Both the position numbers and the translations under genes were made by a program. The notes under the pieces are model-generated. The model did not search any database, was not told the origin of the DNA, and saw nothing but the letters and a program-made list of their open reading frames with translations. A stretch of DNA of 64,000 bases from Anaerolineales bacterium (GTDB lineage: Bacteria; Chloroflexota; Anaerolineae; Anaerolineales; UBA11579): NCBI GenBank assembly GCA_026129305.1, contig JAHCII010000004.1, forward strand, positions 10,446 to 74,445, read 5' to 3'. Below, in pieces: positions 10,924 through 64,000 of the stretch; the stretch's first letter is position 1, and every line of letters begins with the position of its first letter.

Positions 10924-10937
10924 TTAACTCAGCCAAC

Positions 10938-10967
10938 AAAAAAGAGCGCCATGAGGCGCTCTTTTTT
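10938..10967. terminator. bidirectional intrinsic terminator between convergent genes
   Basis: AAAAAAGAGCGCC-ATGA-GGCGCTCTTTTTT. Confidence 0.75.
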
Positions 10968-10985
10968 GTTCTTGTATCAGCGTTT

Positions 10986-15720: not shown

Positions 15721-16548
15721 ATGCTCGTTGCTAAATCGAAAATCTGGTCGCTGTTTGCTGTATTGACGATTTTATTGGCCGTGGCCTTCAGTTTGCCTGC
15801 GCCTGTGTTGGCGGCTGACCTGAGCCAGCAGGCCACGCCGCAGCCCCTGCCTCCGGCCGGCGAGGATGGCCGTATTCTGTATACCGTGCAGGCCGGCGAT
15901 TCGCCGTGGGCGATTTCCGCCCGGTTTGGCATCCCCCTGCAAACCCTGCAAAGCTTGAACAATTGGGGCCCCGACGCAGTGGTTGCGGAAGGACAGGTGA
16001 TCTTATTGGGCTTGGCCGAGGAACCCACCGCGACCACAGACCCGCAAGATTCGGTGGTGGCGACGGCCACACCCGAAGGCCCGCTGGACAACCCCGGCAC
16101 GGGCGTGATCTGTGTATTGCTGTTTGACGACGTCAATGGGGATGCCATGCGCCAGGAAACGGAATTCGGCATTTCCGGCGGCCAGGCCAGCGTGAGTGAA
16201 CGCACCGGCCTGGCCAGCCGCACGCTGGCGACCCAAAGCGGCCTGGACGAGAACGGAGAACCGGCGCGCAGCTGTTTCGAGGACTTGCCCTTGGGCGAAT
16301 ATACGATCAGTGTCGCCATCCCCGACGGCTACAACCCCACCACTGCCCCCAACATCACCATTCAGATCGCCCCGGGCCAGACGCAGGACATCAACTTCGG
16401 CGCCCAGCAGAGTTCTTCCGGCGGCTTCAATGTGCTTTCGCCGGAAGAGGGCGGTCGTTCGCCCCTGATGGGCCTGCTGGGCATTGTGCTGCTGCTGGCG
16501 GGTGGCGGCCTTGGCTTTTACACGCTGCAGTTGGGCCGCAGACGGTAG
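15721..16548 (+). CDS. LysM domain protein with Cna-B/SdrD-like domain and C-terminal TM anchor
   Basis: Signal peptide. LysM segment YTVQAGDSPWAISARFGIPLQTLQSLNNW. Beta-sandwich-like segment FEDLPLGEYTISVAIPDGYNPT. C-terminal hydrophobic helix followed by RRR. Confidence 0.7.
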   Translation: MLVAKSKIWSLFAVLTILLAVAFSLPAPVLAADLSQQATPQPLPPAGEDGRILYTVQAGDSPWAISARFGIPLQTLQSLNNWGPDAVVAEGQVILLGLAEEPTATTDPQDSVVATATPEGPLDNPGTGVICVLLFDDVNGDAMRQETEFGISGGQASVSERTGLASRTLATQSGLDENGEPARSCFEDLPLGEYTISVAIPDGYNPTTAPNITIQIAPGQTQDINFGAQQSSSGGFNVLSPEEGGRSPLMGLLGIVLLLAGGGLGFYTLQLGRRR

Positions 16549-16562
16549 AGAATTGTAAAAAT

Positions 16563-16609
16563 AGAGATTGGAGATTTTGCATAATCTCCTATTTCTAGTC
16601 TCCAATCTG
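16563..16609. repeat. RGAGATT heptamer inverted-array element, copy A
   Basis: AGAGATT-GGAGATT (16563-16576) faces AATCTCC (16583-16589) and AGTCTCC-AATCTG (16597-16609). Lies between convergent gene ends. The right arm encodes the final QIGD-stop of the glycosyltransferase. Confidence 0.8.
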
Positions 16610-17635
16610 CCTGTATATTTCCCCCAGCTTCTCCCTAAACTCATTCGCATTCCAGGCCCCTGCGTGTTTGATCGCCGCGTCCTCCAGCTCTTCGCGCACT
16701 TTCTCATCCACCACGACCGTGATGATGGCGGCGCCGAAGGCGCGCGAGTCGCCGGGCTGCAGCAAGTAGCCTGCCGAGCCGAGCAGTGCTTCGCTGGACG
16801 CGTTCTGCAGCGCCACGATGGCTTTGCCGCAGGCCAGCGCCTGGCGGTAAGGGTCGCCCCAGGCCAGCGGTGGGGCGGCGCAGACCACTGCGCTGCTGCA
16901 CTGAAGCAGCGCAGCCTGCTCGGGCGGGTCCAGCAGTGGGGCTACGCGCACTGTGTCGCCGGCGTGCTGGGCTTCCAGTTGGCTTTGCAGCCAGGCGGCG
17001 TGCTGGGCATCGGTGGGCGCCAGCAACAGGGGGTAGTACTCACCGATCGATGCGGAGGCCCAGCTCCAGCTGTCCAGCAGGGCGCCCAGCGCGGCTTCTT
17101 CTACCAGGCCCAAGACTAGTACATATTCGTCCGGCAGCCCGGCGGGAGCCTGCCGCGGCCGGGTCGGGGTGAAACTGGGGTGCACGGACGGGCCGAGACG
17201 CTGCAGTGTACCGGGCAGGCGCGGGGCGGGCAGATCCTGCGGCCACAGAATATGGGCGCGGGCCAGGCCGCCGCGGCCCATGGCGGCTTGCAGCAGACTG
17301 CGCCCGCCGGGGCCTTCCGGCTCCGCCGGGCTGGCCACAGTGGGCGTCTTGCCCAGCAGGCTGGCGCCCAGCCCACAGGTGTGGATGGCGTCTGCAGCGT
17401 GCTCGGCGGCCAGTTGTGGCAGGATGCGCTGCTCCCAGTCGCCGCGGGCATGGCTGTGCCAGTAGACTGCTTTGGGCCCATCTGGCAGCGGGGCGTTCTG
17501 CGGGTCGGTGGGCAGGGCCAGCAACGGCTCCACACCCTCTGGCGCGGCGGCCAGCAGCGTGCGCAAGTGCCAGGCCGCCGGGCTAAGCGGCGCATAGGCC
17601 AGCGGCCAGCCATCGTAAAGCATGCGAATAGGCAT
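16595..17635 (-). CDS. glycosyltransferase (GT-B fold, family 1/4-like)
   Basis: 346 aa with a C-terminal GT1-like region (ALACGKAIVAL...LGSAGYLLQPGD). The family assignment is approximate. Confidence 0.55.
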   Translation of the reverse strand: MPIRMLYDGWPLAYAPLSPAAWHLRTLLAAAPEGVEPLLALPTDPQNAPLPDGPKAVYWHSHARGDWEQRILPQLAAEHAADAIHTCGLGASLLGKTPTVASPAEPEGPGGRSLLQAAMGRGGLARAHILWPQDLPAPRLPGTLQRLGPSVHPSFTPTRPRQAPAGLPDEYVLVLGLVEEAALGALLDSWSWASASIGEYYPLLLAPTDAQHAAWLQSQLEAQHAGDTVRVAPLLDPPEQAALLQCSSAVVCAAPPLAWGDPYRQALACGKAIVALQNASSEALLGSAGYLLQPGDSRAFGAAIITVVVDEKVREELEDAAIKHAGAWNANEFREKLGEIYRQIGD

Positions 17636-17683
17636 GGGGGAAGTAAATCAGGGACGAGGAAATTGGTCAATGGATAAGAGAAT

Positions 17684-17744
17684 AGAGATTGGAGAATGGA
17701 GATTTAACTCGATCCCCATCGCTAATCTCTATTCTCCAATCTCC
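17684..17744. repeat. RGAGATT heptamer inverted-array element, copy B
   Basis: AGAGATT-GGAGAAT-GGAGATT (17684-17704), a 19-nt loop, then AATCTCT-ATTCTCC-AATCTCC (17724-17744). About 20 of 21 positions can pair. Confidence 0.85.
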
Positions 17745-17779
17745 AGTTACCAATTTCTCTGGCATATAATGAGCCTTCC

Positions 17780-20785
<3,006 letters not shown>

Positions 20786-20809
20786 CCCTTCAACCCTTTG
20801 TCGTGACGA

Positions 20810-20844
20810 GGCGAGGACGTTGCTCGAACGTCCTCGCCTTTTTT
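20810..20844 (+). terminator. intrinsic terminator of glyQS
   Basis: GGCGAGGACG, a 9-nt loop, CGTCCTCGCC, then TTTTTT. Confidence 0.8.
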
Positions 20845-21041
20845 GTTGTCGGTGTTGTGTTTGTTGCAGGTGTTGTCAGTGTTGTAGGTTTTGTGGTGCT
20901 TTTTGGGCGGCGGCGTGGGTGGTTTTGCGAAAGAGTTGGGTTTGGAGTTTGGGATGAATAGATTGTCGCGCCGGTGGGGGAGGGCGTGTGGGATGTGGGT
21001 GGAATGTCAAGCGGGACAGAGCGCTGGGCGAAGACGCCCGG

Positions 21042-24819: not shown

Positions 24820-25563
24820 TCAGGCTTCCCACCACTGATACAACCCCAAATTTCCGCCTGCGCCGTCTGAGAGAAAACTTTCCTTGACGCTGAAGCCAGC
24901 CTCGGCGGCCAGCGCGGCCAGTTCCTCCTCGCTGAAGTGGTGAGCGTAGCGTAGGCCGCGGCCGCCGGCGCGCCAGTCCAGCAGATAATCGCTCTGGTCC
25001 ACATCGTCAGCCTGCAGCCCGGCGGCCTCCCAGGGCTGGATACGCGCCCGCAGCCGGGGGCTGTTGAGGAACTGCCAGTTGGACAGCGCCAGGCGCCGGG
25101 CTTTGTAGGGACGGGTCTTAGACCCGTCCCCGCGCAGCAACGTCCGGGCCTGGCGCAGAAGGCTCAGCCGTCGGGTCTGCCCGGGGATGTGGTGCAGCAC
25201 GGCGAAAGCGAAGACGAAGTCGAATGGCTCATCTTCTAGCTGGCTGCTCCAGTCTGGCTGGGTCAGGTCGGCTTCAAGAAACTGGAGATTGGAGAGTGGA
25301 GATTGTCCTCGGGCGGCGGACAGTAATTCAGCGCTGAAGTCCAGCCCCAGGTAGCGGCCGGTGTGGCCGCGGCGGGCCAGCTCCGCCGCCAGCACGCCGT
25401 TGCCGCAGCCCAGGTCGAGGATGCTGGCCCCGGCCGGCACGTTTTCCAGCACGCGCAGCACGCCCGCTTGGGGGCGGGCGCGGCTGGCGGAAAACGGTTG
25501 CGCCAGCGCCTGATAGAATTGCTTGTTCAAGGCGATCAAGCGTTCGGCAACGGCGTCTTGCAT
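24820..25563 (-). CDS. class I SAM-dependent methyltransferase, Trm9/ALKBH8-MT-like
   Basis: Trimmed from track ORF 24820..25752 to ATG 25563. SAM motif ILDLGCGNG. FSASRARPQ, FDFVFAFAVLHHIPGQTRR and DYLLDWR...RYAHHFSEEEL resemble the Trm9 family pattern (recalled from memory). Contains an in-frame heptamer-array copy. Confidence 0.6.
   Translation of the reverse strand: MQDAVAERLIALNKQFYQALAQPFSASRARPQAGVLRVLENVPAGASILDLGCGNGVLAAELARRGHTGRYLGLDFSAELLSAARGQSPLSNLQFLEADLTQPDWSSQLEDEPFDFVFAFAVLHHIPGQTRRLSLLRQARTLLRGDGSKTRPYKARRLALSNWQFLNSPRLRARIQPWEAAGLQADDVDQSDYLLDWRAGGRGLRYAHHFSEEELAALAAEAGFSVKESFLSDGAGGNLGLYQWWEA
25284..25304. repeat. RGAGATT heptamer array, copy C (single arm, inside a CDS)
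   Basis: GGAGATT-GGAGAGT-GGAGATT. Its reverse complement is 21/23 identical to the right arm of copy B. Encodes SPLSNLQ in the methyltransferase. Confidence 0.75.
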
Positions 25564-25576
25564 GGCTTGAGTATAG

Positions 25577-54546: not shown

Positions 54547-55968
<1,422 letters not shown>

Positions 55969-55973
55969 AACCA

Positions 55974-56034
55974 AATCTCCAATCTCTAATCTCCATTCTT
56001 TTACGGCGAGATTAGAGATTGGAGACTGGAGATT
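55974..56034. repeat. RGAGATT heptamer inverted-array element, copy D (atpD-atpC spacer)
   Basis: AATCTCC-AATCTCT-AATCTCC (55974-55994), a 13-nt loop, then GAGATT-AGAGATT-GGAGACT-GGAGATT (56008-56034). The last GGAGA lies 7 nt upstream of the atpC ATG. Confidence 0.85.
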
Positions 56035-56039
56035 GTTGA

Positions 56040-59645: not shown

Positions 59646-60244
59646 GCCGGCGCCTGGGGATCTTTGGCGGCACCTTTGACCCGCCGCATCTGGGGCACCT
59701 GATCCTGGCCGCGGAGGCGCAGGCCCAGCTGGGCCTGGAGCAGGTGCTCTTCGTGCTTACTCCCCAACCCCCGCACAAGCTGGATAAACGGATCAGCGCG
59801 CTGCAAGACCGGCTGGATCTGCTGAATGCCGCCATCCGCGGCCAAAGCATCTTTGAGCTCTCCACGGTAGAGATCGAACGCCCCGGCCCACACTACACCG
59901 TGGACACGTTAGCCCAACTGGCCGGCCTGTATCCCCAGCACGAATTCGTCTATTTGATCGGCGGCGATTCCCTGGAGCATTTGCCCAGCTGGCATCGCCC
60001 CATCGATTTTCTGGCAGCCTGCGCCGCCCTGGGCGTTATGCTGCGGCCTGGCGCCCAGCCGGACCTGGCCGCCCTGGAGGCGGCCCTGCCCGGCATCAGC
60101 GCCAAGCTGGAACTGGTGGACGCGCCTTTGCTGGAGATCTCCTCCAGCCAGATCCGGCAGCGGGTGCGCGCGGGCGGCCATTTTCGTTTTTACCTGCCCG
60201 GCGCAGTCTACGAGTTAATCTTGCAGCGCGGCCTATATAAGTAG
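59633..60244 (+). CDS. nadD: nicotinate-nucleotide adenylyltransferase
   Basis: GIFGGTFDPPHLGHL...ISSSQIRQRV. Overlaps obg by 13 nt. Confidence 0.9.
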   Translation: MAGLSRRLGIFGGTFDPPHLGHLILAAEAQAQLGLEQVLFVLTPQPPHKLDKRISALQDRLDLLNAAIRGQSIFELSTVEIERPGPHYTVDTLAQLAGLYPQHEFVYLIGGDSLEHLPSWHRPIDFLAACAALGVMLRPGAQPDLAALEAALPGISAKLELVDAPLLEISSSQIRQRVRAGGHFRFYLPGAVYELILQRGLYK

Positions 60245-60308
60245 GGGCGGCTTGCAAGCCGCCTTACGGGTTGTCTTTCGTGCATCCTGAGCACTTCGTT
60301 ATCTGTTG

Positions 60309-60334
60309 TAGGGGCGATGCATGCATCGCCCCTA
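60309..60334. terminator. perfect 26-nt palindrome between convergent nadD and peptidase genes
   Basis: TAGGGGCGATGCATGCATCGCCCCTA. A second palindrome GGCGGCTTGCAAGCCGCC lies at 60246-60263. Neither has a U-tract. Confidence 0.45.
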
Positions 60335-60349
60335 AGAGATAAACAGTGG

Positions 60350-63648: not shown

Positions 63649-63662
63649 TCGTTATTGACTGT

Positions 63663-64000
63663 TCACCATTGACTGGTTGACCACAACCCCACATCCACCT
63701 GCACGGCGATCGCGCCAGCCGCCAGCAGGGCCTCGCCGTCGGTCGGGGAATAGACGCCGCCCGCCGCGATCACCGGCAGGCTTTGTCGGGCCAGTTGGCG
63801 GGTTGCCTCCAGCGCCTGGGGCAGCAGCGCCGGGCCATACAGCCGCCCGCTCACCAGCTGCCCACGGGCTGCGGGCAGGCTGCCGCGCGCCGGCCCCAGG
63901 CTGATCGCGGCGGCCCCGGCTTGCAAGGCGGCCTCGCACAGTTCGAGGGCACGCGTCAGAGGCAGCTGGGCTATACAGGGCAGTTCGCCGCGGCCCGCCT
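63663..64000 (-). CDS. dihydroorotate dehydrogenase-like TIM-barrel flavoprotein, C-terminal part (gene continues beyond the window)
   Basis: The frame stays open to the window end. C-terminus ...SGRLYGPALLPQALEATRQLARQSLPVIAAGGVYSPTDGEALLAAGAIAVQV resembles the PyrD-family C-terminal FMN-binding region. Confidence 0.5.
   Translation of the reverse strand, partial: AGRGELPCIAQLPLTRALELCEAALQAGAAAISLGPARGSLPAARGQLVSGRLYGPALLPQALEATRQLARQSLPVIAAGGVYSPTDGEALLAAGAIAVQVDVGLWSTSQW

Follow-up and report, generated by a model that had tools for sequence, protein, structure and literature searches.

What kind of genetic element is built when a single 7-nt unit is repeated a few times, is often faced by an inverted array of itself, and is scattered over a chromosome? 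This question is raised by a stretch of 64,000 nt from an Anaerolineales bacterium (Chloroflexota, Anaerolineae, UBA11579; GenBank assembly GCA_026129305.1, contig JAHCII010000004.1, positions 10,446 to 74,445 of the forward strand), here called the window, in which arrays of the heptad RGAGATT occur at four loci. Over-representation of heptamers in bacteria has been noted since 2007, and we know of no accepted mechanism or function for bacterial heptamer repeats. The RGAGATT loci are a real and non-random family of dispersed heptad repeats, and we are highly confident that the family is a new lineage-specific example of a class already described, the dispersed heptameric repeats. The four loci, called copies A to D in the order of their positions, are composed as follows.

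Copy A, left arm: 16563..16576, + strand, AGAGATT GGAGATT, starting 15 nt past the stop codon (16546-16548) of a LysM-domain gene.
Copy A, loop: between 16576 and 16583, TTGCAT.
Copy A, right arm: 16583..16610, - strand, four degenerate units reading AATCTCC TATTTCT AGTCTCC AATCTGC on the + strand.
Copy B, left arm: 17677..17704, + strand, AGAGAAT AGAGATT GGAGAAT GGAGATT, in the divergent region between a glycosyltransferase gene and glyQS.
Copy B, loop: 17705..17723, no strand, 19 nt, TAACTCGATCCCCATCGCT.
Copy B, right arm: 17724..17744, - strand, AATCTCT ATTCTCC AATCTCC, with a TATAAT box (17765-17770) 20 nt beyond its end.
Copy C: 25284..25304, + strand, a lone array GGAGATT GGAGAGT GGAGATT without inverted partner, with a degenerate unit at 25277-25283.
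Copy D, 5' arm: 55974..56001, - strand, AATCTCC AATCTCT AATCTCC ATTCTTT, starting 5 nt past the atpD stop codon (55966-55968).
Copy D, loop: 56002..56006, no strand, TACGG; the degenerate fourth unit is also in the loop of the predicted fold.
Copy D, 3' arm: 56007..56034, + strand, CGAGATT AGAGATT GGAGACT GGAGATT.

An earlier note, made from the sequence alone, had described four such loci, three of them as hairpins, and both their coordinates and their sequences hold. The two-unit pattern RGAGAWTRGAGAWT, with one mismatch at most, is matched 14 times in the window against 0.05 times expected from dinucleotide-preserving shuffles, and none of 100 shuffles reached 14, so that the enrichment over a shuffled control is clear for the window. 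Tandem Repeats Finder (TRF) reported a period of 7 at 17685-17704, 17724-17745, 25283-25305, 55974-55999 and 56008-56035, and found in the window no heptad arrays of any unit other than RGAGATT. The unit stands out because it has 43% GC in a window of about 63% GC, in agreement with the note's description of it as AT-rich relative to the genome. The predicted folding energies of copies A, B and D are between -18 and -37 kcal/mol, with z-scores against shuffles between -3.4 and -5.4 (+ strand), which bears out the three hairpins; copy C gave no stable fold in this test. When Rfam was searched with the window, tRNAs alone reached the gathering threshold, and the hairpins gave just sub-threshold generic matches to miRNA precursors.

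The unit is found widely beyond the window. When representative genomes, one for each species, were scanned with a three-unit pattern (RGAGAWT x3), at least 120 loci were detected. Of the 120 listed, 72 are from Chloroflexota by record title, and the carriers among these are Ardenticatenaceae, Anaerolineales, Caldilineaceae, Ca. Leptofilum and Promineifilaceae. These 72 loci, 508 kb in total, contain 103 elements, 36 of which are inverted-array hairpins and about two thirds of which are single arrays without partner. Besides the element by which a locus was ascertained, one element is present per 16.4 kb, and this matches the density in the window. Long direct arrays, with as many as 27 units, predominate in the 48 listed loci from other phyla, where just 4 hairpins occur. 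As a negative control we used metagenome loci around glyQS homologues (80 loci of 73% identity or less), and no RGAGATT array was present in their 572 kb; a metagenome scan with the glycosyltransferase returned no relatives, and a scan of viral contigs gave 108 scattered matches, with the paired architecture in none of the 80 listed. The strong enrichment in the window and in many Chloroflexota loci establishes the genuine dispersed family that the earlier note had proposed.

Arrays of other heptads were observed at the glyQS loci L125, L172, L174, L175, L185 and L186 (loci outside the window are numbered with the prefix L), namely CAGTAGT, GAGCAGT, TCAGTGG, GTCATTG, CCTTCAG and others, and some of these are inverted too, as in CAAGTTC x7 facing GAACTTG x5 at L185:1136-1247. 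The heptad phenomenon is therefore wider than RGAGATT, and the unit is lineage-specific.

The anatomy of the element was characterized using 38 hairpins from the Chloroflexota loci and the window. The order is GGAGATT...AATCTCC in 34 of the 38 and reversed in the other 4, copy D being among the reversed. Loops range from 3 to 43 nt and are unrelated in sequence, and the arms span 2 to 12 units, a left arm of four units being modal (22/38). For 586 units, the first position is G in 62% and A in 32%, the third is A in 558, and the sixth, which was left free by the unit filter, is T in 84%; a core of 6 nt, GAGATT, is thus strongly conserved and one position is degenerate. Because of the A at the third position, no GGG tract can be formed. 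Variants in the two arms are uncorrelated, with in-register exact matches at 35% against 32-33% in two null models, and therefore the arms did not arise recently as mirror copies of each other, and perfect pairing is in general not kept; this arm-covariation test ruled out an origin by mirror duplication or fold-back. We also considered a 14-nt super-unit of alternating G and A variants, and found no support for it, since the two variants do not alternate. In 34 hairpins, neither a target-site duplication nor a flank motif was found in the 16-nt flanks, and no GTAG head in the flanks or arm ends.

Among published repeats, those nearest in kind are the heptamers GGGAATC of Xanthomonas and GGGGA(C/T)T of Nostoc PCC 7120 (Rehm et al., 2015, PMC4692102). 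These occupy about 185 sites per genome with a preference for four units, and form 70-75 convergent inverted pairs per genome in Xanthomonas; they are mostly intergenic, with a minority intragenic or overlapping stop codons, and are rarer on the coding strand (PMC4692102). Their sites are common to related species and vary in length and sequence, and that report left their function undecided while proposing G-quadruplexes (PMC4692102). Several features of the class are found in the RGAGATT family: a purine-rich 7-nt unit, single-unit arrays with point variants, modal arrays of about four units and convergent pairs; the Nostoc form GGGGATT and GGAGATT are only one base apart. Dispersal far above chance is seen in the 64-kb window and in the 508 kb of Chloroflexota loci, and the family also has in common with the class a minority of copies in genes or over stop codons, a rarity on the coding strand, and sites that related species share with variation in length and sequence. 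There are also differences. RGAGATT has no run of three G, a third of its units begin with A, and an explanation by G-quadruplexes or i-motifs cannot apply to it because it lacks G3 tracts. Its host is Chloroflexota, in-frame copies in essential genes seem to account for a greater fraction of the elements, and a copy with compensatory changes, such as that described below between atpD and atpC, has not been reported for those families.

Other heptad repeats are more distant. The cyanobacterial short tandemly repeated repetitive (STRR) sequences likewise consist of tandem 7-nt units scattered over the genomes of filamentous bacteria, each lineage having several families of units, but they belong to another phylum, have other units (CCCCAGT, TTGGTCA and CAACAGT), and inverted pairing is not a defining feature of them. 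The TAACTGA repeats of marine Beggiatoaceae are arranged in sets of 2-6 copies, of which a genome has well above a hundred, often directly upstream of start codons; for these repeats a role in translation was proposed, and are almost all direct repeats, with one inverted set in 170 (MacGregor, 2015, PMC4679880). The last unit of copy D likewise stands just before a start codon, that of atpC, whereas TAACTGA is AT-rich with stop codons in the forward frames and does not resemble a Shine-Dalgarno (SD) sequence. Within Chloroflexota, 22 arrays of (GATAGRA)n were noted in Chloroflexus aurantiacus (PMC6749651); this too is a heptamer-derived family, but its unit is another one, and it has been described only as tandem satellites, with no hairpins or coding copies reported. 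The earlier note did not recognize the repeat as a named element, and this is right for the name: Rfam has no family for it, and the bacterial-repeat literature searched makes no mention of the unit as a bacterial repeat, of its encoded peptides or of heptamers in Anaerolineae. It is not right for the kind, which had been described (PMC4692102).

A perfect GGAGATT array is stop-free in all six frames, and the arrays encode GDWRLEI when read one way and SNLQSPI when read the other way. In the related loci many arrays and about a third of the hairpins are inside long open reading frames (ORFs), and about 40% of elements lie within coding regions of unrelated housekeeping genes. Three of the genes entered are essential ones. 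Relative to Taq Pol III alpha, 19 residues, RDWRLESDKPLISNLQSPI, are cleanly inserted in DnaE of Ca. Leptofilum (L077); compared with Bacillus QueG (5d08), QueG in L075 has two hairpin-encoded insertions; and a eukaryote-type phosphofructokinase (PFK) in L012 has an insertion of 14 residues. The reading frames of all three are intact through the repeats, so that entry in frame and without disruption, by which the palindromic elements of Rickettsia are characterized, is found here as well. Further coding copies were observed in RecJ-like and HypF-like proteins, named by sequence motif only, and an array in a glycosyltransferase is kept at the same codons in two species at 69% DNA identity. Single coding arrays, as placed by crude gene calls, are antisense in 21 cases and sense in 9 (two-sided binomial p ~0.04), AAUCUCC being favoured in the mRNA; such a bias would fit if SD-like GGAG runs within genes, or a charged, Trp-containing peptide, were selected against. 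As a separate observation, the PFK in L012 (728-2998, from an Ardenticatenaceae metagenome-assembled genome) is a 756-residue duplicated-domain enzyme, the alignment of which with mammalian muscle PFK covers the full length (E = 4e-219), and it is unusually eukaryote-like for a bacterial enzyme.

For the copies of the window we compared syntenic loci of relatives, with DNA identity to the window of about 91% for L205 and L207 (GCA_026129235.1), about 83% for L203, and about 80% for L201 and L210 (both on one contig of GCA_026129335.1). Of the copies in the window, D makes the strongest case for a function, and comparison of its homologues suggests that it is probably functional. It is inside the atp operon, as the earlier note had it, and fills the spacer between the Pfam-confirmed genes atpD and atpC. 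The first three units of its 3' arm pair with the 5' arm in a perfect 18-bp stem, and the last unit (56028-56034) is largely unpaired, with its GGAG 8 nt before the atpC ATG (56040). A heptad hairpin with AATCTCC first is found also in the spacer of L210 (AtpC 87% identical), L319 (77%) and L321/L322 (72%), and the paired units co-vary, being AATCTC/GAGATT in the window and L210, ATTCCC/GGGAAT in L321/L322, and GCTCTCC/GGAGAGC in L319. All hairpin carriers retain a unit containing GGAG or GAGAG directly upstream of the atpC ATG, and the same hairpin has been assembled at the same atp site independently in several projects. The spacer of L207-L209, in which AtpC is 98% identical, has an unrelated 16-bp GC-rich hairpin of similar size, and the Anaerolineales-type atp operons of L323-L325 have spacers of 11-20 nt without hairpin.

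These alignments show, at the level of sequence, a pairing conserved through compensatory changes. A heptad hairpin would have entered the spacer in an ancestor; the stem would then have been kept with its sequence free to change on both sides, and in one lineage another stem would have taken over. In the transcript, copy D would form an intercistronic RNA stem-loop followed by a free GGAG serving as the SD sequence of atpC, and it probably sets the relative expression of atpD and atpC by protecting atpD mRNA, by uncoupling atpC translation, or by both. REP (repetitive extragenic palindromic) stems in Escherichia coli operons stabilise upstream mRNA, and the role proposed for copy D is this known one.

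Copy A is between two convergent genes, encoding a LysM protein and a group-1 glycosyltransferase (Pfam). As had been noticed from the sequence, it supplies the end of the latter: the ORF 16595-17635(-) terminates in ...YRQIGD*, with heptad units providing the codons for Q-I-G-D and the stop codon (16595-16597). In L205 the C-terminus is equally long (YRKLGA*) and the position of copy A is occupied by a canonical GC-rich bidirectional terminator, AAGACCAGG-tgcttcg-CCTGGTCTTTTG. Since the relative has an intrinsic terminator there, copy A probably ends or stabilises the convergent transcripts. Its inner stem, GGAGATT/AATCTCC, has 7 pairs with U-rich tails on both strands and passes a lax terminator consensus on both, and it would act as a weak bidirectional terminator or as a 3' stabiliser of the two transcripts. 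We have moderate confidence in the roles proposed for copies A and D. Another fast-changing convergent spacer was observed between dtd and a gene for a dihydroorotate (DHO)-dehydrogenase-like protein, where L210 has an extra RGAGATT hairpin (17940-17977), the window has another short repeat, ATTGACTG...ATTGACTGGTTGACCA, at 63650-63690, and the sequence in L207, of about 170 nt, is unrelated.

Copy B is, as had been claimed, in a divergent promoter region, between the glycosyltransferase gene and a fused GlyQ-GlyS gene (PF02091 plus PF02092), and ends 35 nt before the glyQS ATG (17780). At its position just a degenerate AGAGATCGGGAATGGAGATTCCAACCTC is present in L205, where a gap of 31 nt spans the loop and inner right arm of the window, and a GTAG-headed GC-rich palindrome is next to the site. 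Copy C is in frame in a gene for a class I methyltransferase dependent on S-adenosylmethionine (24820-25566, minus strand; Pfam); on the coding strand the array reads CAATCTCCACTCTCCAATCTCCAG and encodes Q-S-P-L-S-N-L-Q. The relative at about 80% has a degenerate form of this array, and those at 91% and 83% have GC-rich sequence of equal length resembling distant homologues. Overwriting of the native sequence by heptads without change of length was considered and dropped, because the neighbouring codons are equally discordant; over codons ~85-125 the window is closer to the 80% relative than to the 91% relative. Recombination of a gene segment is thus the simplest account, and the pattern suggests that the methyltransferase gene is a mosaic. 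Copies B and C are probably passengers. The earlier note had also raised the possibility that the elements are conserved parts of the flanking genes in all relatives, and the result is mixed: copy D is shared by several relatives and absent or replaced in others, and copies A and B differ in the 91% relative.

Several observations concern the surroundings of these copies. The TATAAT box is 9 nt upstream of the glyQS ATG and is at a similar distance in L121, L122, L173 and L205, which suggests that the mRNA of the fused glycyl-tRNA synthetase is leaderless in this clade. Downstream of glyQS, directly past a canonical terminator, a T/G-rich tandem repeat of about six copies of a unit of ~9 nt (18-nt super-unit), TGTTGTAGG-like, is at 20842-20898. 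The window also has GC-rich GTAG-headed palindromes (e.g. GTAGGGGCGGCTTGCAAGCCGCCTTAC) at 60241-60267, 60308-60335 and 25105-25130, which look like classical REP sequences. At the orthologous site the 91% relative L207 lacks the pair near 60.3 kb. The palindrome at 25105-25130 is in frame in the methyltransferase gene and encodes GSKTRPY, and the 12-residue GSKTRPY segment is patchy among homologues, being either present or missing (GGSETRPY, GGFETRPY and similar). Elsewhere, at 2863-2951 on the minus strand, ARAGORN calls an 89-nt tRNA-Tyr, for which the Rfam tRNA model gave no report at the gathering score.

How, then, did the family arise and persist? Copies entered intergenic DNA and, in frame, protein-coding genes. 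As read from the aligned sequences, the comparisons show that such insertions into genes and spacers occurred, that copies persist long at orthologous sites while unit number, variants and loops change, and that ordinary hairpins have replaced heptads, or been replaced by them, at copies A and D. Arrays would grow and shrink by slipped-strand mispairing, most copies would be near-neutral passengers filtered by selection, and some would have been taken over as RNA stem-loops; the GGAG-rich strand is rarer as sense strand inside genes. We consider this picture as a whole, a lineage-specific dispersed RGAGATT family of mostly passengers with some copies exapted as RNA stem-loops, to have slightly better than even chances of being correct.

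Several points weigh against it. Slippage alone cannot seed one heptad at hundreds of unrelated sites or a complete hairpin in DnaE; the seeding agent would not be a classical transposase, and we hold any account of the dispersal with low confidence. Sense and antisense folding energies, compared for strand-specific RNA selection, are divided 14 to 14 and give no RNA-level selection signal across the whole family. The compensatory changes at copy D come from five sequences of four lineages and could likewise be yielded by DNA-level correction from arm to arm, and the inner stem of copy A has just 7 bp with 3 G-C pairs. Furthermore, the copy number per genome is an extrapolation from the window and the sampled loci, and the assignment to coding or intergenic DNA was made by a crude ORF caller, with three cases verified against solved structures.

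The elements had been taken by the earlier note for a family like REPs or miniature inverted-repeat transposable elements (MITEs), and this stands for their niches only, i.e., convergent gene ends, operon spacers and promoter regions. Like REPs and REPINs (REP doublets forming hairpins), which are mobilised by RAYT transposases, they are small imperfect palindromes scattered at the ends of genes and within operons, and like Rickettsia palindromic elements (RPEs) they include in-frame palindromes in protein-coding genes, housekeeping genes among them, tolerated as extra surface peptides. In contrast, REPs have a GTAG head and one conserved GC-rich stem without tandem sub-repeats, MITEs derive from autonomous insertion sequences and have target-site duplications around terminal inverted repeats as well as a conserved internal sequence and size class, and RPEs are conserved sequences of 100-150 bp in defined families, not arrays of a 7-nt unit with free loops. 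In the RGAGATT hairpins the heptad alone is conserved: there is no consensus of about 100-150 bp, no conserved core, and loops and arms vary freely. Since GTAG and target-site duplications are lacking, loops are variable and arms independent, the elements are not members of REP or MITE families, and the resemblances to REP, MITE and RPE are functional or behavioural only. A transposase gene at another place in the genome might nevertheless mobilise whole hairpins as non-autonomous elements of the REP/REPIN or MITE kind, but we consider this quite improbable. Complete hairpins as clean insertions in conserved genes, the atpD-atpC spacer filled by a hairpin as against 11-20 nt in other relatives, and a density high in carrier genomes and zero in others all speak for it, and the orientation bias of 34 to 4 would suit an element with defined ends. 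However, this explanation has no target-site duplication, flank motif or conserved loop to point to, nor a GTAG head, the separate GTAG-headed palindromes fitting REP better; some two thirds of the elements consist of one array only, copies stay in place at orthologous sites over AtpC identities of 87-72%, and no transposase was identified, although none was systematically searched for.

An improbable alternative is that the arrays are sites for a protein which reads 7-nt units cooperatively, in a regulatory or nucleoid-organising network, as the ribbon-helix-helix omega repressor of pSM19035 binds 7-bp iterons in direct and inverted arrays. The conserved 6-nt core with one degenerate position, the modal arrays of about four units in a fixed convergent orientation, the same architecture with another unit in Xanthomonas, and the position of copy B beside a promoter and of copy D beside a start codon are all in its favour; an RNA version would involve cold-shock or S1-type oligonucleotide-binding (OB) folds, as MacGregor argued for binding of the Beggiatoaceae heptads by S1, Csp or CsrA (PMC4679880). 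It has to face the ~40% of elements in unrelated housekeeping coding regions, unexpected for the regulon of a transcription factor, and the lack of a common functional theme in neighbour genes; no candidate protein was identified, and the replacement of heptads by GC-rich hairpins at the atp and convergent-end sites of relatives suggests that the stem, and not the heptad sequence, matters. A long shot is that the convergent heptad arrays of about four units here, in Xanthomonas and in cyanobacteria are the footprint of a single sequence-specific DNA process, which writes lineage-specific heptads into DNA, essential genes included, and some hairpins of which were domesticated by the host. Repeats may be added from a template to the two 3' ends that a break leaves, or a hairpin may be integrated in single-stranded form, and such a process is compatible with independent arms, unconserved loops, the G-strand-first orientation, the absence of target-site duplications and a unit that forms no G-quadruplex. 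Generic intrinsic terminators or attenuators that happen to be repeat-built are a very unlikely explanation. It draws on copy A, which is between convergent genes, is terminator-like in its inner stem on both strands and has a canonical terminator as counterpart in L205; but the canonical terminators of the window have GC-rich stems and clear T-runs (20808-20850 and 10935-10970), copies B and D have no T-run, copy D immediately precedes an essential cistron of an operon, and copy C, like many of its relatives, is intragenic. The chance of a low-complexity or assembly artefact is practically negligible: nothing specific favours it beyond the fact that repeat-rich regions of metagenome-assembled genomes can misassemble, and it is opposed by the shuffles, by the same hairpin at the same site in independent assemblies of several projects and by the preserved frames of DnaE, QueG and PFK.

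The meaning of the RGAGATT family is mainly that a known architecture, with about four units, convergent pairs and positions near genes, recurs with a unit that is unable to form G-quadruplexes, and therefore the structural explanation favoured for Xanthomonas and Nostoc cannot be general. Toleration of whole hairpins in frame, for example in a replicative polymerase, means that real insertion events are involved, and GDWRLEI and SNLQSPI provide annotators with a recognisable peptide signature. The atpD-atpC copy is conserved with compensatory changes, and its place is taken in a sister lineage by an unrelated hairpin, which makes it a testable case of a repeat exapted for gene expression. Lastly, the closely related genomes GCA_026129335.1, a carrier, and GCA_026129235.1, apparently a non-carrier, offer a natural contrast for finding the agent of dispersal.

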